Positions 709 through 36,345 of a stretch of DNA of 64,000 nucleotides are shown here, piece after piece. Numbering within the stretch: position 1 is the first letter of the stretch; every line of letters begins with the position of its first letter. Source of the DNA: Picochlorum sp. SENEW3 (lineage: Eukaryota); assembly GCA_034226945.1 (NCBI GenBank), contig CP120459.1:496001-560000 (forward strand). The letters run 5' to 3'. The notes under the pieces were generated by a model. The model saw only the letters and a program-made list of their open reading frames with translations. It searched no databases and was not told the origin of the DNA. The position numbers were made by a program, and so were the translations under genes.

Positions 709-930
709 TCTCTGGTCCCAAGCAGTATATGGTCATGTCTGGGACGCTCATGTCTTCTTTTTCATAGAGACAGAGCATGTGTGGGACACCCATGCTACCG
801 CGGGGGTTGTCCCATCAAACATGGTCTTGGACCGGAGAGGGTACCTCAATCGCCAACTACTTTCGACTACTCGAGCATTTCGACTACCCGACGATACGCC
901 CCATGTTCTTGTATGCTCCTTGGTACCCTC
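709..930. ncRNA. Candidate structured non-coding element of unknown family
   Basis: Nested stems 709-718/829-838, 746-754/769-776, 781-788/808-815, 837-845/922-930 and 873-878/913-918 in an intergenic gap. Confidence 0.4.
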
Positions 931-11199: not shown

Positions 11200-12192
11200 A
11201 TGGACACAGCATTGTTGCTTGCTTCCAGAAATGTTGGTCAATTACATAGAGTTAGTGCCCTGATTAGTGAAGGGGCTAATGTGAATGCTGTTGATCCTGA
11301 TGGATGGACTGCATTGATGCTTGCTTGTAGATTTGGCGATGCTGAAACAGCCCGTGCGTTGATTAGAGCTGGAGCTAATGTGAATGCTACTCGTGATACT
11401 ACTGGAGAGACTGTATTAATGCTTGCTTCCGGATCACGTGGAGGTGCTGAGAGTGTCCGCGCCTTAATACGAGCAGATGCTGACGTGCATGTCGAAAGTC
11501 ACCACGGGCAGACTGCATTGATGTTTGCTTCTGGATGCAGAGGAGGTGAGGAGAGTGTCAGAGCCTTGATTAGAGAAGGGGCTGATATACATGCTACTGA
11601 TAACAATGGATGGACTGCTTTGATGTTTGCTAGTAGATATGGTGGTGATGAAAGAGCACACAGATTGATTATGGCTGGGGCTGATGTTAATGCTGTGAGT
11701 AATCATGGTCAGACTGCATTGATGATTGCGTCTGGATCTCATGGAGGTGTTCAGAGAGTCCGTGCCTTGATCAGTGCTGGTGCTGATGTCAATGCCACAA
11801 GTCACCACGGGCAGACTGCATTGATGTTTGCGTCAGGATATGGTGGTGAGATTGAACGAGTCCGTGGATTGATTAGAGATGGGGCTAGTAGTATGGATGA
11901 TTTTCCTCATGGAAATACTGCATGGATGCATGCTTCTGGAAATGGTGATTCAGAAAGTGTCCGTGCATTGATTTACTATGGTGCTGATGTGAATGCTCGG
12001 CATAATGATGGCTCTACTGCATTGATGTATGCATGTCGATATGGTGATGTTGAGAGAGTCCTTGTATTGATTCAAGCTGGTGCTGATGTGACTGCTCAGC
12101 ATAATGATGGATCTACTGCATTGATGTATGCATCTCGATATGATGATCTTGAGAAAGTCCGTGTATTGATTGAAACTGGTGCTGATGTATGA
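11200..12192 (+). CDS. Intronless ankyrin-repeat protein; last repeat frameshifted
   Basis: About 10 repeats of GxTALMxAS...VRALIxAGADVNA. Confidence 0.9.
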   Translation: MDTALLLASRNVGQLHRVSALISEGANVNAVDPDGWTALMLACRFGDAETARALIRAGANVNATRDTTGETVLMLASGSRGGAESVRALIRADADVHVESHHGQTALMFASGCRGGEESVRALIREGADIHATDNNGWTALMFASRYGGDERAHRLIMAGADVNAVSNHGQTALMIASGSHGGVQRVRALISAGADVNATSHHGQTALMFASGYGGEIERVRGLIRDGASSMDDFPHGNTAWMHASGNGDSESVRALIYYGADVNARHNDGSTALMYACRYGDVERVLVLIQAGADVTAQHNDGSTALMYASRYDDLEKVRVLIETGADV

Positions 12193-12643
12193 ATGCGGTT
12201 GATCATGAAGGTCGGTCTGCATTGAGGACTGCGCATTCCCTTCAAATACAGGAAATTTTGGTTCTAGCTGGAGCAGAAGGTGAGCTTAAGCTTGAGCTTG
12301 CAGAAGGTGAACTGTCATAAACAGTAGTTTTGTTTTGGGGGACACTACCTGACACAATAATCATGCATGCCAACATATGGATAGATAGATTACTAAGGAA
12401 TTATAAACTACCTGTGACTACAAGTTTTCAAAGACCATCTCTCTGTGTGTTTTTTTTGGTTGATGAGGTACATCTAGATGCAAGATGACAAACGTACGAG
12501 TACGTCGGTCGACCGGTCCATCTGCTCCAGGAGTCGGACCTCCCAACTCCAGCATTTGATTCGATTCTATCAATACTTGAATTCCAATGCACATTGCTAC
12601 TGCTCCAATATAGAATCAACCACTGGAATAGAAGTTTTTCATC

Positions 12644-25647: not shown

Positions 25648-26189
25648 ATTGGGACGTTCGTTGTCGATCAATCAATGTAAAAAAAATGAAAACAGCCAAC
25701 AACGACTCTTCTAATGTGTGCGACCCCAGAATGATACTAGGTTGATCTGAAAAGAAGAAGAATTGTTTTCCAGAACCCAACTTTTTATACAACACAGTCA
25801 TGCGGTGCATGAGAATAACCAGCAGCATTCTGCTACAGGTGTAATTCATGTTCCTAATGTTTTTATTAGAGTGAATTCAATTGCCAATATTGGCAATTCA
25901 TTCCTCCTCCTCTAGGATAGCACACAGATCTGAACTGTGTGTTTTAGAGCGCCGACTCATGCGTCAATCACATGACAGATGAAGCAATACTGCCTCGATG
26001 AATGAGTAATCATCATGGATACATGGATACATATGCCTAAATATAGGCCATCTAGTAGATGGCCAGATCTGGCATGCATATGCCGGAATTCTGATGTCAT
26101 ATCATGATGACAGCTGCCCAGTGAGAATTTATGTATTCAATAATCGTTATTATTTATATAAATCATTGACAGATATAAATTCCGTTGTC

Positions 26190-27996
26190 ATGTTGGTGCT
26201 TCAAGAGACACCGGCGGGATTCGCCTTGTTCCAGGTGGATGATGCAACAGTAAAGGCTGCGGAGGAGAAGGTTCGTGATTCTTTATGGCATCAGAATTTT
26301 ATTATTATTTGAACTGTTGTTGTTATGCTAGTAGTAGTAGTATCCCTGCTGCTGCTGATATCCAGCAAGGAAAGACATGCATGCCGACTCGATGATGCGA
26401 CGACGTGAAAGAGCCTGACGAATGACACTACATTGCAGGATGTGTGGGAAGATTTCGAAACCCTTGATCGTGCGAAAAAGGTGGCAAAGTTGAAGGCGTT
26501 TGGTAAATTTGACAATACGACGGAAGCTCTTCAGGCTGCAGCGTCCTTGGTGGACAGTAAATTGGGCAAGGGATTGAAGAAATTCCTGAAGAAGAATGTT
26601 GATGGTGAGACAGTTGGCGTTGTTGATGCAAAGCTTGGTAGTATTGTGAAGGAAAAGATGGGCATTCCGTGCATCTATAGCTCTGGTGTGTTGGAGCTGT
26701 CCAGAGGATTGAGGAACCAGTTGGAAGGTCTGTTGAGCGGGTTTGAGTCCGATCTGAAGCCAATGTCACTGGGGTTGTCTCACTCTCTTTCTCGATATAA
26801 GCTCAAGTTTTCGCCGGATAAAGTTGATACGATGATTGTGCAAGCTATTGGGTTGCTGGATGACTTGGATAAGGAGTTGAATACATATGCAATGAGAGTG
26901 AGAGAGTGGTATGGATGGCATTTCCCAGAAATGACGAAAATTATTAATGACAATATCAAATATGCAAAGGCAGCAAAGTTGATGGGGACGAGGGAAAAGG
27001 CTGCAGAGATTGATTTCTCTGAATTCCTGGAGGAGGAGGAAGAGAGTGCCATGAAGGAGGCTGCCATTGTGTCCATGGGTACTGAAATCTCAGAAGAAGA
27101 TGTACTCAATATTGCAGCGTTGTGTGACCAAGTTGTCAGCCTGTCCGAGTACAGAGGTCAGCTGTTTGATTATCTGAGATCGCGAATGGCTGCTATAGCT
27201 CCAAATTTGACAGTCCTGGTTGGGGAACTGGTTGGTGCACGATTGATTGCGCATGTTGGGTCTCTTGTGAATTTGGCGAAAGCTCCAGCTTCTACTATCC
27301 AGATTCTGGGAGCAGAGAAGGCTCTTTTCCGTGCGTTGAAGACAAAGCATGAGACGCCAAAGTATGGGCTGATTTACCATGCGTCGTTAATCGGTCAGGC
27401 GTCCACAAAGAACAAGGGAAAGATCAGCAGAGTATTGGCTGCAAAATGTGCTCTTGGCGTGCGTGTGGATGCTCTTGGAGACACGAATGATGAAGGTGCT
27501 TTAGGATTAGAGGCTCGTGCAAGGGTACGTGTGTATTCTGTTGTTGTACTTGTGTTGCCCTTCTGTATGGCAGAACCCGGGTCTCTTTTTGTGGACCTCT
27601 GTAGGTTTTTTACAAGGGCAATATGGAGTAATATCAACTCCGGGGACGGGTAGAGACAACCATGCACTGCATCCCTCGAATTGATAGTGACATACTACTA
27701 CTGTATATGACGTACAGGTTGAGGCACGTTTGAGACAGTTGGAGGGTAAATCTGATGAAGGTGATGTCAGAACGAAAGGACTTCCGACACCAGCCAAATA
27801 TAATGCACAGGAGACACAAGATGATGCCATGCTTACGACACCAAAGACATATAATGCGGATGCTGACGCTGTTGATACTGGAAGCAAGAAGAAGAAGAAG
27901 GACAAGAAGCGCAAAGCTGAAGATACCCCAGCCTCTGACAAGAAGAGCAAGAAGGAGAAGAAAGAGAAGAAGGATAAAAAGAAGAGTAAAAAATAG
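26190..27996 (+). CDS. NOP58: Nucleolar protein 58 (3 exons; introns 26271-26438 and 27526-27717)
   Basis: MLVLQETPAGFALF, YKLKFSPDKVDTMIVQAI, ILGAEKALFRALK and a KKE/D tail. Confidence 0.95.
27551..27695 (+). ncRNA. Candidate intronic H/ACA-type snoRNA
   Basis: Two hairpins (ttgccctt/aagggcaa and tatcaa/ttgata); ACA at 27690, 14 nt from the 3' pocket; pocket strands ctccgg/tcgaa. The H box is non-canonical. Confidence 0.65.
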
Positions 27997-28197
27997 ACAG
28001 ACAATCTCGTTCTTTCGTCTCTGCGTTTCTACCATTGTACCATTTTCTCGTATTATTGTAATATCCTCGAAAATACAATCTACTTGTATTATTACATTAC
28101 TATAATATAATAATGCTAGAAGAATTGTCCAGGACAGTGCAGGTACTGCAATGTCTCCGAAACTATTCCTTATAGATAATAATCTTCATGATGGCGT

Positions 28198-28743
<546 letters not shown>

Positions 28744-29134
28744 TCACTACTGGTGCGTGAAAATACGGGGCGATAGAGGACCACGGCATAGTCGACTTTT
28801 GACTCGAAAAAACAAATCAGCCACCACCATCACCACCAGCATTGCCATCGCAACACCAACAGCGGTACCATTTATATCACTTTCTGATTAAGTATCTATA
28901 TGCGTCGCTGTTGCTCGACGACGGACGCTGCCTGGGTGCTAGTAGTGTGGCCGCCGTCGGCAGTCGACAGTCTCTCGCTCCTCAAAGCCCCAATCACCCC
29001 ATCATCTCGATGTCATGCCCATGACAACACATACCTGTATCTATTTAGTAAATTATACTGGTAACCAGGTCGTAAGAGCGAGCATTCTTCCTACTGTCGA
29101 GGGTGGGCGTAGGATCACAGAATTGTAATGATAC

Positions 29135-29161
29135 TCCTATCAAAAGGCTCTTTTGATAGGA
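29135..29161. promoter_or_regulatory. Palindrome TCCTATCAAA-N7-TTTGATAGGA
   Basis: Perfect inverted repeat between the divergent RPL40 and Q-rich genes; a near copy lies at 32426-32452. Confidence 0.55.
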
Positions 29162-29605
29162 AGGTAAATATCACCCTTCTCACGTGTGTCAGAAAATCCA
29201 CGTGAGACAAAGATTTCGGGAAACATTCTATTGTGCTCATGATGGTCTTGGAATGGCGATACATTGGCTATTTTATAATTTTATTGTGGACATGCAAGCA
29301 ACAGTTGGGGCTGCAGTGTCGAATTTGGCGTGTACGCTTTATCCCTGCTTGAACAGATTAGTTCGAGCTTCTCTGCCGTGTAACAAGCATTTGAATCCCT
29401 CTTAATGACTACAGAATATTATTATAGAGGATAGAGACGGATGAATTGTAGAGGAATGGTGCCAAAGGCTGTTTGAATTACATTTTCGTGAATTGGTGCG
29501 TTGGCTTGGAGATGTGTGACATGAAGGTTTGACTGGATAATGTACTCATTCCGCGCATGGTTCAGGTCTCTAAATATTTTTGGGTGGCTTTTGCGTGTTG
29601 TTCCG

Positions 29606-31753
29606 ATGGAAGAAGAGCAACAGCAACAGCAACAGCATGGTAATACCTTTCTGGATTCGTTCCTCCAGGATGGGCTGGACTTTGATGCAGGCCGTGGTGA
29701 TATGAATCTCCACCATGTATTGGACTTGGATATACCATATGATGCCTTGCATACTGAGCATGGCTCTGCCAAGGGGAATATTGGAGAGGAACACGCCCAG
29801 GCACCTGGTAGTACTCCGAATGGGGCTGGTGTGCGGGACATCCAGGAGAAAGATTTGTCCGGGTATAACGGTTCTGCTGGTCGCATCGATATCAAACATG
29901 TGGCTGGAGAAGCTGTTGAGGGTTCTGAAGTAAATTCTGGAAATATTGGGACGGAGACTGGTAGTTCAGGGAAGCCTGGAAGACAGGCAAAGAGGCAACG
30001 GTCCGCAGGAATAGGAGATACAAAGAAGGCGGGTCAGCAGATGAGGGGGCGGTTCAGCGGAAGATTACCAACGAAAGAAGATGAGAAGCGTTTAGCGGAC
30101 GAATGCCAGCTGTTGGCACCGTATTTGAGTGAGGATGGGTCGTTGTGTACCTTGGCAACGATAATACGAGCCATGGCAGCAGGCAGCGTCAGAACGCATT
30201 TAGAAAAAGTAGCGAAAAGGAATGATGACATGATGATGAAGTTGAATCTTATTCAGTCTCAACCAGGTGGAGTCAATGTGAATACACTTGCAGACAGCGT
30301 CGTGAGTCTTCAGAACGACTTGGCACAGGCTAGGGCTTATGTAAGGACGCTAGAAGCCAAACTAGGATATCATGAGGGGATGGAGCATGGAAGGCAGCAA
30401 GCAAGCCCATGGGTCGCAAAACATTCCTCTGGAGCTGTGCGATCTAATCCTGTCGAAGATGTACTCCGAACATTACCTCAGACTGGAGCAGAAGTCCCAA
30501 TGCCGATGCATAAATCGGCTTCTGTTGGAGTTCTCACATCACAAGGGGCTGCTCTGTTACCACAGCAAGCCACAATACAAGTGCCCCTGGTATCTTCATC
30601 TGGAGTTGTTCCTGGTGTTGCACCAGCTGTTGCAATGCAATCAAGCCATTCAATGGGGGATTTGAACAGTATCAAGGTGTATCATCCTCAGCAACAAGAG
30701 CAACCCATGCAACCTGTGATGCACGGGAGCCGATCAGCGGTTAATCTTCAAGACCAGTCTGCATTTGCTTCTCAATCGCATGGGCTAGGGGCGCAAGATC
30801 AAAGAACGAGTGTAAGTAATGAGATGACGGTAGGGTCAGTGGACGCTGCAAGTGGAGAAAAAGTGCCAAATGCGAATGATTTTGTCAGAGCTGCATCCTT
30901 ACATGGAGCAGCAAAGGCAGAAGCTGCATCACAAGCTCAACAGTTGGCAGAGGAAGCCCAGAAGCATGCAAAAGCATCAGTGAGAGCTGCACAACAGGCA
31001 GAAGAATTAAAAAGAACGTTATCAGAGCTTCCAGAGTCAGAAAAAGCAAGCGATCAGGCGCAGAATGCTTCAGCTACTGTATCCTCCCTTGAGGCAAGAG
31101 CCAAAGCTCATGCATCAATAACCACTCAAGTTATCGCAAAGGCAAGAAATTTACACGGAGTCGCGCAAAGCCATGAGAATGAAGAGATGAAGGCAATTGA
31201 CCAGGCGGCACGGCTGCAGGCCCAGGCAAGTTCCTTGCACCAAGGCTCTATTGATATCTCTGCATCGATGGGAATGGAGAGAGGGAATGACTATTCACAG
31301 CAGGTTAGATTCACAAATACAGCTGGCCCAACAGTCGCCACCCCTACTCTCTTGGGAGCAGGGCAGCAGATGCAGGCTCCCTTTGGAAAAGTTGATGTTG
31401 TTGATGACACAGTCACCAATGCTTCTGATGGGCTCCCGAACACTGCTTTACATCTCGGCAATACTGCCGCGGTTTCGTTATCAGAACAGCAACAGCAGCA
31501 TGTTGCTTTGGCACAGATAATTCTTCAACAGAAACAAGCGCAGATGCTGAATCCATCCCATATTATGTACACCAATGCACAGGATCCATCTGCAGATGCA
31601 GCAGCATTGCAGCAGCAAATCGCAGCCCTGCATGCACAGCAACCAGCATCTCTTGTCTCTGCTCCGCCAATTCAAATCCAAGATCATGAGGAGATTGATA
31701 CGAAAGATTTAAGGACACAAGGGAATGACGCCAATATGGAGAATGGCACATAA
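29606..31753 (+). CDS. Gln/Ala-rich protein of unknown function, regulator-like
   Basis: ~715-codon ORF with an acidic-hydrophobic N-terminus, a basic patch, a helical core, coiled coils and polyQ tracts. Confidence 0.75.
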   Translation: MEEEQQQQQQHGNTFLDSFLQDGLDFDAGRGDMNLHHVLDLDIPYDALHTEHGSAKGNIGEEHAQAPGSTPNGAGVRDIQEKDLSGYNGSAGRIDIKHVAGEAVEGSEVNSGNIGTETGSSGKPGRQAKRQRSAGIGDTKKAGQQMRGRFSGRLPTKEDEKRLADECQLLAPYLSEDGSLCTLATIIRAMAAGSVRTHLEKVAKRNDDMMMKLNLIQSQPGGVNVNTLADSVVSLQNDLAQARAYVRTLEAKLGYHEGMEHGRQQASPWVAKHSSGAVRSNPVEDVLRTLPQTGAEVPMPMHKSASVGVLTSQGAALLPQQATIQVPLVSSSGVVPGVAPAVAMQSSHSMGDLNSIKVYHPQQQEQPMQPVMHGSRSAVNLQDQSAFASQSHGLGAQDQRTSVSNEMTVGSVDAASGEKVPNANDFVRAASLHGAAKAEAASQAQQLAEEAQKHAKASVRAAQQAEELKRTLSELPESEKASDQAQNASATVSSLEARAKAHASITTQVIAKARNLHGVAQSHENEEMKAIDQAARLQAQASSLHQGSIDISASMGMERGNDYSQQVRFTNTAGPTVATPTLLGAGQQMQAPFGKVDVVDDTVTNASDGLPNTALHLGNTAAVSLSEQQQQHVALAQIILQQKQAQMLNPSHIMYTNAQDPSADAAALQQQIAALHAQQPASLVSAPPIQIQDHEEIDTKDLRTQGNDANMENGT

Positions 31754-31871
31754 CAAACAAAGACATTTTTTCCATTTGTTGTAGTTTTTGAGAATAGCTG
31801 AGTCGTATCGGATCTATGTAATCAAGAACAACTGTTTTGTCGTTGTGCAACGTCGCTGTTGTAAATTCACG

Positions 31872-32018
31872 GTGGTGCCTCACAAGCTTGTGCGTCTACC
31901 CGAGTGGGTTGCCATGCCAGGTGCCAGCAAGGCAATCTTTCAAGATCTCTAGCAGCCCCCACATTGAGGCGCCATGACACCTTCATTATGGAGGCCGTCC
32001 CTACAGATGCGGGTAGAT
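31872..32018 (+). ncRNA. Candidate pseudoknotted RNA element of unknown family
   Basis: Stem 31872-31882/31965-31975 crossed by 31894-31902/32010-32018; the G-U wobbles favour the + strand. Confidence 0.4.
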
Positions 32019-32335
32019 TTAACTTTGTGTAAAACATTATATGCAGCTTCTAAGGAAGCACGTAGTCTCGAATCGACCGTGTGTGTCACTGAGCCGCGAA
32101 AACTCAGAAACTGGATTGGCCAGTCGTGACGCTCTAGCTCGACCAGAACGCCGTGGTTTGTGATACAATATATATAATATCTTAATATAAGCCATAAATA
32201 TCGTTAATAGTGCTTCTCCGGGCTCAAGGGAGAAGATACGTTCATATAGTAGACTTGGACATCGTCGTCCTGTTCCTTGCCTTTGCGACAGCAGTGGGCG
32301 ATTCGTGTGAATAGGGTATCAAGGAATACTCGATA

Positions 32336-34028
32336 ATGCCGAAGCCGGAGTCCGAAAAGATTCCCGTCACCCTGGTACGTGTTTTGGCAAACACTTGGAC
32401 AGTGTCACAGATGGTTTGAAAAATTCCCCATCAAAGTACACCTTTGATGGGAGAGGATGCTATCTGCTGGCGTCCGAGCATGCTCGTTGTGGGGCTGGGA
32501 CGATTCCGTCAATCAAGAATGTTGCTGATACTATTCTTCTTTATCGACTGTGTAGGTGACGGGATTTTTGGGTAGTGGAAAGACGACCCTGTTGAATCAC
32601 ATGTTAAAAATGAGGGGAGATAAGAGAGTAGCTGTAATAGAGAATGAAGTGGGAGAGATCAACATTGATAATTCATTGGTGGTGGAGAACCTCTTGTCGA
32701 AAGAGGATCTCGTCTCCATGGATAAGGGCTGTGTGTGCTGCAGTCTTAGGAGTGATATTGTTAAAGCTTTGAAAGAGTTGCAGGGTAGAAGTGAAAAGAA
32801 GGGTTGTGCATATGATGCAATTCTTCTGGAGACGACAGGGTTGGCAGATCCTGCACCAGTAGCCTTCACTTTCTTTTCGAACCAATGGATATCAAGTAAC
32901 TTTCGATTGGATTCGATCGTTTGTCTCGTGGATGCTCAGCATGTCAATAGACACTTGGAGGATGCCTCATCTGGAGATTTGAATGAAGCAGTCAATCAGA
33001 TTGCATTTGCCGATGTGGTATTGTTGAATAAGATTGATCTCGTGACGAGAGACGAGCTGGAGAAAGCGCGTGACCTCGTACGATCAATCAACGTGACAGC
33101 TGACCTCATTGAGGTGAAGTTGGACCCTCAAGTGGCAAATGATGGATCTAATGCTGAGAATAGGCAGGAAAATGATGGTGATCCAACAGACAGAATGGAA
33201 GGAGAAGAATTGACCTGGGACAGGATAGTAGGAATCAACTCATTTTCGATTGAAAGAGCACTCAAAGTGGACCCAAGCTTCATGGACTCTGACTCGGAGG
33301 AGGAAGAGGAGGAAGGCCGTAAAACAAAGAGACACAAGTCAAAGAAGCAGCCGGCAGAGGCGGAGAAAATCAGCCCTCGTGAGCTGGTGTTGAATAGAAA
33401 TGTTCATTGTGGAAAACACAGAGGCCCATGCAGTGAGACATGTGATGATCCCGAACTAGACGCTCTATTGGCACATCAAAAAGCAGTGGAGTTGCAGGAA
33501 CAACGCGAAAGAATGCCCAAAAGACGTAGGAAGAAATTACATGATCTTTCAGGAGTAGGATCAGTCGGTATATCTGCGAGAGGACCGTTAGATCAGTACA
33601 GATTTAATGCCTTTATGCGAGATCTGCTGTCTGAGAAGGCCAGAGACATTTTCAGGTCAAAGGGGTCTCTGTGTATCAAGGGACAACCAAAGACAAAGTT
33701 TGTGTTCCAAGGTGTTCATGAAACCATTTGTTTTGGCCCCTCCACGAGTGGATGGGGTGAAGGAGAAGAGCCTATCAATCAGGTTGTCTTCATTGGAAGA
33801 AATCTGGATAGAAAGGCCCTCACAGAAGGTTTTAGATCTTGTGTGTGGGTACCCCTTCCAGAAGGTTGGGAAGAATGTTATGACAAACGTGTTGGGCGTC
33901 CCTTTTATTTCCATAGGAGTACAGGGAAGAAACAATGGGATAGACCCTCGTTTGCAAGCGCGTTGGTACGATCAACAGAAAGCAGTCATAAACAGCCGCG
34001 CTCGTTACAACCCAAAACTGTTGCTTGA
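32336..34028 (+). CDS. CobW/COG0523 metal-binding GTPase with a C-terminal WW domain (intron 32375-32555)
   Basis: KIPVTL|VTGFLGSGKT, GCVCC, ETTGLADP, NKID, CobW_C (RSKG...FQGVH), NLS-like KRRRKK and WW (LPEGWEE...FYFH...QWDRP). Confidence 0.92.
32426..32452. promoter_or_regulatory. Palindrome CCCCATCAAA-N7-TTTGATGGGA in intron 1 of the CobW-WW gene
   Basis: Same arms and same 7-nt spacing as 29135-29161. Confidence 0.55.
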
Positions 34029-34109
34029 GAGAGTTTCGTAGTCATTTGCTGCTTTCTGTATTCTTGTTTGTTATATCTTATATTCTGATGATTCTTATTC
34101 AACTTGTTT

Positions 34110-35885
34110 TTACAATACAACATGACCGAAGACAGCACGCTGTGCCTTCTCCAGATACAGCAATGCAATTGCCTGGGATGACGGATCAATGTACAGAACC
34201 ACCGATCCTCCTACCAGGCTCACAATGACAAGCCGTAGTAACCGTTTCTTTATCGAATTCTTCCCCGATCTGAGTTTATCCAGATCATCTGGTGACCACA
34301 ATGCCATCTGAATGACAGACCCAAAAACTAGAGAAATCAACGTGGCAGTAAAACACGCCACATTAAACGGCATACTTGCATCTGGAATAGGCAGGTGAAA
34401 CAAGACATTTTGTCCTGCAACGACAATCTCATGAGGCCCATCCCACATGCCACCTTGCCTGTCTGCATGTAATGTTGCAGAGTGGGGTGCCACTCGGACA
34501 ACTGGAGCAGGAATATCAATGCCCCGTGATACATCTGGCGGGTATTCAAATACTGACAAAACCGTTCGCTCAATATTGAGATGGATTTTGACGTCATCCT
34601 TGACGCCATGAAGCACCACGTCAACCAAGCCAGCATGCCGCCGTGGGGCACTAGGTATCCAGTCCACATAAACCCCCTCTGCCATCCTCTTCCCACGGAA
34701 CCATACGACATCATCACCATGCGTAATACGCAAAGATAAAGGATCATACACAACCTCCCAAGGAATCATCTGACGATATCGCACCACGGTAGTGTTTGAC
34801 ATCCCCATGGTCACCAAGGATGTCATGGTTGCCAAGAGGGGATTTCCATGCCTCCCAGCAACCCAATTTGCCACGTCAACAGTATCTCCAACTACTTCAA
34901 TACTCTTAGCATGTACTTTGGACGCACCAGTACCTTCCATCCCATACATGGGACAGTCCAAATACCTACCATCTACTGACGATGCAGCATCACACCCTTG
35001 AACAGGAATATCGAGCCCAGAGCCATGCCTGTATACATACACATTCGACCTCGACACAACTGGACACTGAAACTCCCACAAACCATCCCCTTCACCGCGC
35101 GTATCATCGACAACATATCCTAGCACAGCATTCACATCAACACCAGCATGCCGCCGCTGATGCCACCATCTATGCATTCCTACATCTCTATGCACAAGAG
35201 CACTCATCTCTATATGAAACATAATACCACCACTTCCATCATATCTGGACACCAACCTCATGGAATGATACGGCGTCTCCACCATACTCAACCCATCAAA
35301 GATACCTCCAAGCCCCCTACGTCCACGGCACGGCAGCAATTTCATCCATTGTTCGATACTCTCCACGCACGGAAAATCGGTAGTAGAAACACCTATAAAT
35401 GTACTCTCAGTACTTACAAACGACTTCCTTGGTGTCGTGATCAGAGAGGAGGCAGAGCACCCAAGCAGCCTCCCCAGCATTCTCATCACCACCTCCTCCT
35501 TGGCATCATCACCAGGCGTCATGGACGCATACTCCACCACCAAGCCAGGAGCTCTATCCACATACCACGACGGCAATCGCGTATCACCTCTATTCCCCCT
35601 CGTGTACGTCACCTCAATACGCCCCAGCCCCCCATCCTCCACCATCAATCCCTCAATCCCAGCAGGAATATACTGCCATTCCGACCCCGACAGGTACCCA
35701 CTACTCTTGAATGATCCATACACAAACCATGATGAGCCACCATCATTACCATTGTTACCGTTGTCATCGCCATGATGATGGAGAGGATACAGCACAACCT
35801 CTTCTTCCAGCAATACTTCAGCTTGAACAACCATCGCTCCTGCGAGCAGCAGCAGTAGTAAGTGTTGTCGTCCTAAGCCAAGCAT
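34110..35885 (-). CDS. PIGT: GPI transamidase subunit PIG-T/Gpi16
   Basis: Signal peptide, CVESIEQWMKLLPC, EYPPDVSRG, and PDASMPFNV before the TM segment. Confidence 0.85.
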   Translation of the reverse strand: MLGLGRQHLLLLLLAGAMVVQAEVLLEEEVVLYPLHHHGDDNGNNGNDGGSSWFVYGSFKSSGYLSGSEWQYIPAGIEGLMVEDGGLGRIEVTYTRGNRGDTRLPSWYVDRAPGLVVEYASMTPGDDAKEEVVMRMLGRLLGCSASSLITTPRKSFVSTESTFIGVSTTDFPCVESIEQWMKLLPCRGRRGLGGIFDGLSMVETPYHSMRLVSRYDGSGGIMFHIEMSALVHRDVGMHRWWHQRRHAGVDVNAVLGYVVDDTRGEGDGLWEFQCPVVSRSNVYVYRHGSGLDIPVQGCDAASSVDGRYLDCPMYGMEGTGASKVHAKSIEVVGDTVDVANWVAGRHGNPLLATMTSLVTMGMSNTTVVRYRQMIPWEVVYDPLSLRITHGDDVVWFRGKRMAEGVYVDWIPSAPRRHAGLVDVVLHGVKDDVKIHLNIERTVLSVFEYPPDVSRGIDIPAPVVRVAPHSATLHADRQGGMWDGPHEIVVAGQNVLFHLPIPDASMPFNVACFTATLISLVFGSVIQMALWSPDDLDKLRSGKNSIKKRLLRLVIVSLVGGSVVLYIDPSSQAIALLYLEKAQRAVFGHVVL

Positions 35886-36345
35886 TCTGCTCTCCTAGTT
35901 AAAAAAACTGCTGGGTATGGAAATCGTTGTAGAAAGGACCCGAGTCATGGCACGTTTCTTTGAAGCGCCACGAGCCTTCCCTCACGACCCCCCTTTTTTG
36001 TAATAACAACTCACACAAATCCAAAATACCAGAATATATATAGATCTACTGTAGTAGTAGTACCAGAGCAACAGTACTCTTGAATCCGTCTGCCATGCAA
36101 ATTCAAGTGTGGGTATTTATCTAATGTATCAAAGTACGGAGAGGACCATGTCAATGGACAATCCTATCGGTCAAAGGCATCCATGGACCGTTCTTAGCAA
36201 TCTGATGTCGTTGGATTTCCTCTCGGTCGTGGACCAAGACATGATTCGAACCGTATCAAAGAGACCCTCTCCCTCTCACACACTATGTGATTTCATTGAA
36301 TACTATAGTTGTACCTCGTAGTGATAGACGAGGTGTGGTTGAACC

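Follow-up and report, generated by a model that had tools for sequence, protein, structure and literature searches.

What reads two nearly identical palindromes that lie beside two neighbouring genes of the green alga Picochlorum sp. SENEW3, and do the palindromes tie these genes together? Both copies, of the form CCYATCAAA-N7-TTTGATRGG, occur in a 64,000-nucleotide stretch of contig CP120459.1 (positions 496,001 to 560,000; hereafter the window). The first (site 1) stands upstream of a gene for a Q-rich protein, and the second (site 2) in intron 1 of a gene encoding cobW and WW domains (CobW-WW). The original prediction took them for a dimeric transcription-factor operator or a conserved pre-mRNA hairpin through which the two genes would be co-regulated. 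Both palindromes were confirmed at 29135–29161 and 32426–32452 with the same 7-nt spacing, and 100 dinucleotide-shuffled versions of the window yielded no match. They are two of 13 perfect sites, within approximately 200 or more copies across the genome. The motif is a double-stranded DNA site, and we consider, with moderate confidence, that it is bound by a putative dimeric factor of the general regulatory type, whose role would be to open promoters and phase nucleosomes on both sides.

Genome-wide copies and symmetry of the motif

The genome (13.85 Mb in 14 contigs) was scanned with the reversed pattern as control. The exact pattern occurred 13 times compared to 0 for the control, above random frequency, and allowing up to two mismatches yielded 196 copies, with 0 for the control and 1.25 expected. 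The conserved core, CCYATC-N13-GATRGG, was present in 118 exact copies (1 in the control, 2.7 expected), and allowing core spacers of 9–17 gave 174 copies vs. 7. The full consensus was TCCYATCAAA-N7(6)-TTTGATRGGA. Its outer T/A pair was preferred in 77 of 102 half-sites, beyond which the information content was approximately zero, while the inner AAA of the arms tolerated substitution and the spacer bases carried at most 0.2 bits per position. Among 30 sites, the spacer was 7 nt in 21, 6 nt in 6 and 5 nt in 3; the three spacer-5 matches were coding repeats in long repeated open reading frames (ORFs) and were excluded. In an unbiased region of 464 kb, comprising the window plus 200 kb on either side, a position weight matrix (PWM) matched 19 times at spacer 7, 9 times at spacer 6 and 0–4 times at eight other spacers.

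The two arms varied independently. In 51 sites with at most one mismatch (one duplicate locus removed), the arm combinations were C/G in 22, C/A in 10, T/G in 12, T/A in 5 and others in 2 (Fisher p = 1.0). The T/A vs. C/G difference between the window copies had been described as compensatory; this is true of these two copies, but is attributable to chance given the independence of the arms across the 51 sites. None of the 8 positions tested across 61 distinct core sites covaried: pairing there did not exceed the expectation under independence, and compensatory pairs were not in excess. The spacers did not pair, and the arms were mismatched in many sites. Because the arms vary independently and the spacers do not pair, the motif was assigned as a DNA site rather than an RNA hairpin, and identity as an H/ACA or SECIS element was dropped on account of the independent arms. 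Inverted half-sites, fixed spacing, a free spacer and independently varying arms together support the operator proposed originally. Both window copies folded stably (z −3 to −4), a by-product of both happening to be perfect dyads: the perfect dyad reaches 12 bp at site 1 and 10 bp at site 2, where the outermost pair is a C/A mismatch, which corrects the first reading of that site.

Promoter placement and the flanking A+T wave

For the placement of the motif, 84 sites were classed with a dicodon coding model trained on the unbiased 464 kb, after removal of 8 loci that were duplicates or spacer-5 repeats. Thirteen remained unclassed owing to a missing coding segment on one side. Enrichment near promoters was evident: 59 of the 71 classed sites lay in divergent gaps, 10 in same-strand gaps, none in convergent gaps and 2 in coding segments, compared to background shares of 12.5, 14.4, 3.1 and 70%, respectively. 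Thus, 69 of 71 sites were non-coding (p = 1e-33), and the excess in divergent gaps was significant with either length (p = 6e-14) or number of promoters (p = 0.004) as the basis. The distance to the nearer coding segment was at least 75 bp, with a median of 244 bp, and the sites tended toward the middle of the gap.

The genes facing the sites (125 segments, 111 from one Pfam scan and 14 already known) were functionally unrelated; they ranged over replication, kinesin, lipid, amino-acid and RNA-binding functions, among many others. Ribosomal proteins accounted for 13 of the 125 facing segments vs. 5 of 144 at control divergent gaps (p = 0.028), and photosynthesis/Calvin-cycle-type families, among which FBPase, aldolase and epimerase were counted regardless of compartment, for 9 vs. 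0 (p = 0.0009). Site 1 is non-coding and upstream of the Q-rich gene, as originally described, in the gap that separates RPL40 (−) from the divergently oriented Q-rich ORF (+); the earlier aside that it may belong to the RPL40 promoter fits the genome-wide pattern, since ribosomal-protein genes are enriched beside sites. A metal-homeostasis set was not enriched, CobW-WW being alone among the 125 facing segments, approximately one third of which had no Pfam label. With 196 sites genome-wide and unrelated facing genes, neither the proposed link of the Q-rich gene and CobW-WW as a co-regulated pair nor an autoregulated regulator plus metal-GTPase module was supported.

Some copies stood in other settings. 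A tRNA-Lys(TTT) gene (L038:1795-1900, minus strand, contig C1) has an intron of 33 nt that consists mostly of the motif, with a second site approximately 390 bp away. Sub-telomeric repeats hold copies at the end of contig C1 (L179) and near the ends of C3, C4 and C9. Two weak sites, with spacers of 6 and 7, were located upstream of a gene for cobalamin-independent methionine synthase (L155:6786 and 6845).

The DNA flanking the motif carried a wave of A+T content. In a profile built from 74–76 host sites, with copies in mobile elements and sub-telomeric repeats excluded, A+T peaked symmetrically about the motif centre at distances of approximately 105, 265 and 410 bp, and the periodogram had its maximum at 160 bp. 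Either flank taken by itself displayed the wave, as did strong and weak sites alike; its amplitude of 0.143 was higher than in any of 500 control draws made in divergent gaps (maximum 0.085), and no such wave appeared in 132 promoters aligned on the start codon. The symmetric score was 0.046 at the motif vs. 0.0006 ± 0.005 at random divergent-gap points, and a shift of 40 nt away from the motif brought it to zero. Three host sites of the spacer-6 class, held out of the template fit, scored 0.12, 0.10 and 0.03, and copies within elements were devoid of phased flanks. In the window, flank phasing was strong at site 1 (0.103) and weaker at site 2 (0.027). In 69 divergent gaps, no second shared motif stood out at the centres of best phase fit.

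In PMC12146615, A/T peaks are reported to match nucleosome centres and to be most pronounced at the transcription start sites (TSSs) of Chlorophyta, with Picochlorum soloecismus as a case shown. If the peaks at ±105, 265 and 410 bp are likewise nucleosome centres, the first nucleosomes would therefore begin approximately 30 bp either side of the motif centre. Symmetric phased arrays have been described around barrier-factor sites (bioRxiv 2020.02.28.969618), and the flank geometry observed here would be that of such a factor. A two-fold symmetric protein could read both CCYATC cores, which would lie on one face of the helix because their centres are approximately 19 bp, or nearly two turns, apart. 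Once bound, the factor would keep a nucleosome-free gap of approximately 60 bp around the site, and remodellers would align the arrays against it, as with Reb1. Site 1 would then serve the RPL40/Q-rich promoter pair.

The best-surviving alternative, which we regard as possible though rather unlikely, is an ordinary condition-specific dimeric transcription factor, as for a growth, light or diel regulon, with the gaps opened and phased by other means. The bias toward ribosomal and photosynthesis genes, the occurrence of the motif in a minority of promoters, and the generality of TSS-linked A+T waves in Chlorophyta (PMC12146615, main text) are consistent with it. However, the symmetric wave is in register with the motif to within approximately 40 bp and is lacking under start-codon alignment, and sites are found at genes of unrelated function as well as in a tRNA intron and in sub-telomeric repeats.

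Several observations nonetheless weigh against a general regulatory factor. The A+T wave stands as a sequence proxy for phased nucleosomes, and the phase and period of the cosine template were fitted on the same sites. As A/T waves at TSSs are general in chlorophytes (PMC12146615, main text), a fixed motif-to-TSS distance alone could give such a wave. The motif is not universal: clear sites occurred in approximately 10–20% of divergent gaps, a share based on 19 spacer-7 PWM matches, some of them coding, in the 464 kb with its 77 divergent gaps. The gene classes depend on our own coding model and on Pfam cut-offs that differed (1e-5 vs. 1e-8), and weak sites are also present at two of the five ribosomal genes in the control set. 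The sites examined were the first among the matches listed, biased to contigs C1–C7, together with those of the unbiased region. Finally, in 46 metagenome loci that encode homologues of the Q-rich protein (511 kb), no dyad was detected at up to 3 mismatches with spacers of 5–9, and a PWM search at spacers 6 and 7 found none either.

At the motif density of this genome, approximately 7 sites would be expected in those 511 kb; most of the loci are GC-richer, distant and redundant copies of few species. Gene order is largely retained in L072–L077, with RPL40 syntenic in L072–L075 and L077, and the RPL40–Q gap of a syntenic relative was without the motif, so the check for conservation at orthologous loci turned out negative. 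The CobW intron of L072 (95 nt) contained one perfect right half-site without the left arm. In a run of approximately 97%-identical DNA, small indels in both spacers were among the differences listed, shortening the spacer of site 1 to 6 nt and leaving the length of that of site 2 unchanged. Across the loci sampled, the two window sites are not conserved, and the motif was not seen outside this genome. Given its absence from the 46 loci, the motif looks lineage-restricted, but as many of these loci are distant, GC-rich and redundant, only the more cautious statement about the two sites is made.

Candidate binders, mobile elements and a bacterial look-alike

The Q-rich protein looks like a transcription factor. 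It is single-copy, and its closest named homologues are Picochlorum proteins with 97–99% identity. It contains a domain of approximately 60 amino acids whose conservation extends over both Trebouxiophyceae and Chlorophyceae (197 matches at E ≤ 0.001); five of ten domain clusters looked up bear names, e.g., Myrmecia, Apatococcus and Dunaliella. The layout comprises a basic patch, a strand-like R-F-S-G-R-L segment, a helix, a glycine turn, a second helix and a coiled coil, and the strand-like segment was 96–100% conserved in 97 sequences. We take this pattern to resemble a ribbon-helix-helix (RHH) fold, a likeness that no search confirmed. A monomer model contained helices at 40–57 and 66–75 and left the strand region unstructured, and fold searches were dominated by the coiled coil. 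The protein has no Pfam or NCBIfam family; no RHH family was among the Pfam, PHROG and PDB matches of the domain, and PF01402 does not match the gene. Foldseek, VIA-align, plasmid tblastn and ESM Atlas returned nothing interpretable for the domain, the top rows of ESM Atlas being weak matches to small phage proteins (0.90–0.93, low recognition score). Short divergent RHH domains are often missed by profiles. The domain (30032–30232) is a candidate for a new transcription-factor family, possibly RHH-like.

It is improbable, in our estimate, that the binder is a prokaryote-style RHH protein, possibly the Q-rich protein itself, that became a genome-wide barrier factor in one Picochlorum lineage. 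If this were true, several hundred bidirectional promoters would be wired by a long bacterial-type operator. The wide conservation of the Q-rich domain and the narrow range of the motif argue that the Q-rich protein is not the binder.

A spread of the motif by transposons, or its recognition by a domesticated transposase or recombinase, with later retention as a promoter element, is quite improbable. Motif copies do occur inside a hAT-type miniature inverted-repeat transposable element (MITE) with 8-bp target duplications (three full copies inspected), which has two internal motif copies and 7 candidate places in the genome. A second repeat of approximately 400 bp carries one copy and is present in 4 places, near pogo-type DDE and TnpB-like ORFs. 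The arms around a 6–7 bp spacer also resemble tyrosine-recombinase core sites, and the motif is seemingly lineage-restricted. Against this, all-against-all BLAST found no shared homology in the flanks of host sites, information is approximately zero immediately outside the arms, the MITE palindromes are internal and outside the terminal repeats, and the element copies lack phased flanks. There were no shared or exchanged flanks among the sites compared; recombinase genes were not searched for. A dispersed-repeat origin, raised in the original prediction as one of the findings that would count against it, did not hold, since flanks were unique at host sites and repeat hallmarks applied only to a minority in two small families. 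A reading of the motif as a transposase end, based on the 3 of 13 exact sites that lie in a repeat, was rejected for host sites by the flank BLAST. The elements may have captured a host site or helped to spread it.

Other element remnants were noted. A degenerate pogo-like element with a DDE_1 fragment and a 656-bp internal inverted duplication lies beside unannotated low-GC ORFs (L022:2000-4647). A 1024-aa Fanzor-like ORF is located in a duplicated block of approximately 7 kb (L020:4713-7784 and L021, contigs C10 and C12), the second copy being fragmented; its C-terminal Cas12f1-like TNB match was weak (E = 8e-5, below the cut-off).

A palindrome of Sphingomonadaceae, GGGnnCCCATCAAAGTANTACTTTGATGGGnnCCC, found in hairpins resembling repetitive extragenic palindromic elements, shares the same 18 searched bases and the 7-nt spacing with the algal motif, and made up most of at least 121 prokaryotic matches and 8 of 10 viral matches. 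It has a near-invariant self-complementary centre, GTANTAC, with GGG/CCC flanks, and its arms matched each other in 117 of the 121 matches listed. In contrast, the algal motif has a free spacer and independent arms, and its conserved part lies outside. A bacterial origin was rejected because the conserved positions differ, and the Sphingomonadaceae palindrome is probably a coincidental look-alike. It spans approximately 35 bp, is widespread (L188–L308, L118–L124, L126) and also occurs in-frame in a phage portal-like gene; a term search of the main text of PMC3733652 did not find it.

In its narrow two-gene sense, the proposed module, in which the Q-rich protein would bind the motif so as to control both its own gene and CobW-WW, is very improbable. 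A perfect dyad does lie in the Q-rich gene's own promoter gap, and the basic patch, domain of approximately 60 amino acids, coiled coil and Q-rich tail are as in transcription factors. However, the motif has 196 sites across the genome, metal genes are not enriched beside them, and the putative recognition strand is near-invariant across chlorophytes, yet 0 of 46 homologous loci have the dyad. Least probable of all, to the point of being negligible, is a conserved pre-mRNA hairpin acting on splicing or stability: the window copies fold stably, one being intronic and the other just before a donor-like sequence, but neither excess pairing nor compensatory change was found at any of the 8 positions in the 61 core sites, mismatched arms are common, the majority of sites lie between divergent genes, and an Rfam scan of 26000–36000 returned only dinG, at 23 bits vs. 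a gathering threshold of 46.9 (E = 2.1).

Local genes and comparison with known systems

The window is gene-dense eukaryotic DNA, and the genes around the two sites follow the order NOP58 (+), RPL40 (−), Q-rich (+), CobW-WW (+) and GPI-transamidase-like (−). The labels NOP58 and GPI-transamidase-like come from a reading of the translations, the former also with a Nop Pfam match. Site 2 begins 52 nt inside the CobW-WW intron, in line with its original placement, and the exon junction is identical in the relative L077, which is without the intron. The donor-like sequence AG/GTAAAT indeed follows site 1. The putative 5'-untranslated region (5'-UTR) intron of RPL40, approximately 440 nt long on the minus strand (28595–29034), shares a short block with L072 and may host a small RNA, with no Rfam match. 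Elsewhere in the window, an ankyrin-repeat gene with approximately ten units of 99–102 nt occupies 11200–12230. Coordinates are collected in Table 1.

Table 1. Positions of the motif copies, genes and elements discussed (window coordinates unless a locus is given).
Feature	Position	Strand	Description
Motif copy 1 (site 1)	29135..29161	.	TCCTATCAAA-aggctct-TTTGATAGGA; 10-bp arms, 7-nt spacer; RPL40/Q-rich divergent gap
Motif copy 2 (site 2)	32426..32452	.	CCCCATCAAA-gtacacc-TTTGATGGGA; in CobW-WW intron 1
Degenerate third motif copy	810..836	.	3 mismatches, 21.8 bits
RPL40 (ubiquitin-L40 fusion) coding sequence	28198..28584	-	Faces site 1; from translation
RPL40 putative 5'-UTR intron	28595..29034	-	Splice-like ends; donor-like sequence also in L072
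Q-rich protein gene	29606..31753	+	Basic patch resembling a nuclear localization signal, ~60-aa conserved domain, coiled coil, Q/A-rich tail
Chlorophyte-wide conserved domain of the Q-rich protein	30032..30232	+	Ribbon-helix-helix-like by eye, fold putative
CobW-WW exon 1	32336..32374	+	Joined to exon 2 in intron-less relative L077
CobW-WW intron 1	32375..32555	+	GT...AG ends and homology
CobW-WW exon 2	32556..34028	+	cobW, CobW_C and WW domains (PF02492, PF07683, PF00397)
hAT-type MITE	L030:2513-2953, L031:2530-2970, L033:1753-2117		Terminal inverted repeats, 8-bp duplications, many GGCATAT sub-terminal repeats

In the openly accessible papers searched, we found no description of the motif, nor of a green-algal nucleosome barrier factor with sequence specificity. 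The promoter motif is real, strong and apparently undescribed. For P. celeri, JASPAR plant matrices were used because empirical binding-site data were lacking (PMC11156908, 2024, main text). The main text of PMC11092101 makes no mention of motifs, palindromes or promoters, and that of PMC6811619 no mention of motifs. The motifs given for Scenedesmus in the main text of PMC12638912 are GATC, GTAC and LHY-like, and work on Auxenochlorella (PMC12633428) describes periodic N6-methyladenine and 5-methylcytosine (6mA/5mC) as well as internal bidirectional promoters.

A motif this long and rich in information, located at a phasing centre, would allow a direct test of what sets promoter chromatin in compact algal genomes. 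For an industrial alga, it could also supply a portable element with which to build synthetic bidirectional promoters. If it is truly absent from sister lineages, promoters would have been rewired wholesale within one genus.

Among known systems, the motif resembles the sites of yeast Reb1, Abf1 and Rap1, of CTCF and of fly Phaser in having many copies in promoters of unrelated genes. Rap1 is biased to ribosomal-protein and carbon-metabolism genes and has sub-telomeric sites. The sites of these factors are non-palindromic, whereas the 27-bp inverted dyad of the alga would imply a homodimer; the motif further differs from those of the yeast barrier factors in its sequence, its occurrence in a green alga and its not being seen in the related algae sampled. 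Prokaryotic RHH proteins (Arc, MetJ, CopG, NikR) bind long spaced dyads and autoregulate, but the Q-rich domain gave no sequence or structure match to them and no link between the Q-rich protein and the motif was found. The flanking wave resembles the consecutive A/T peaks described for microeukaryotes, which are A/T waves of approximately 150 bp at TSSs, with peaks at nucleosome centres (PMC12146615). Unlike those peaks, which PMC12146615 anchors on TSSs in a main text without palindromes, the wave reported here has the motif as its centre of symmetry.

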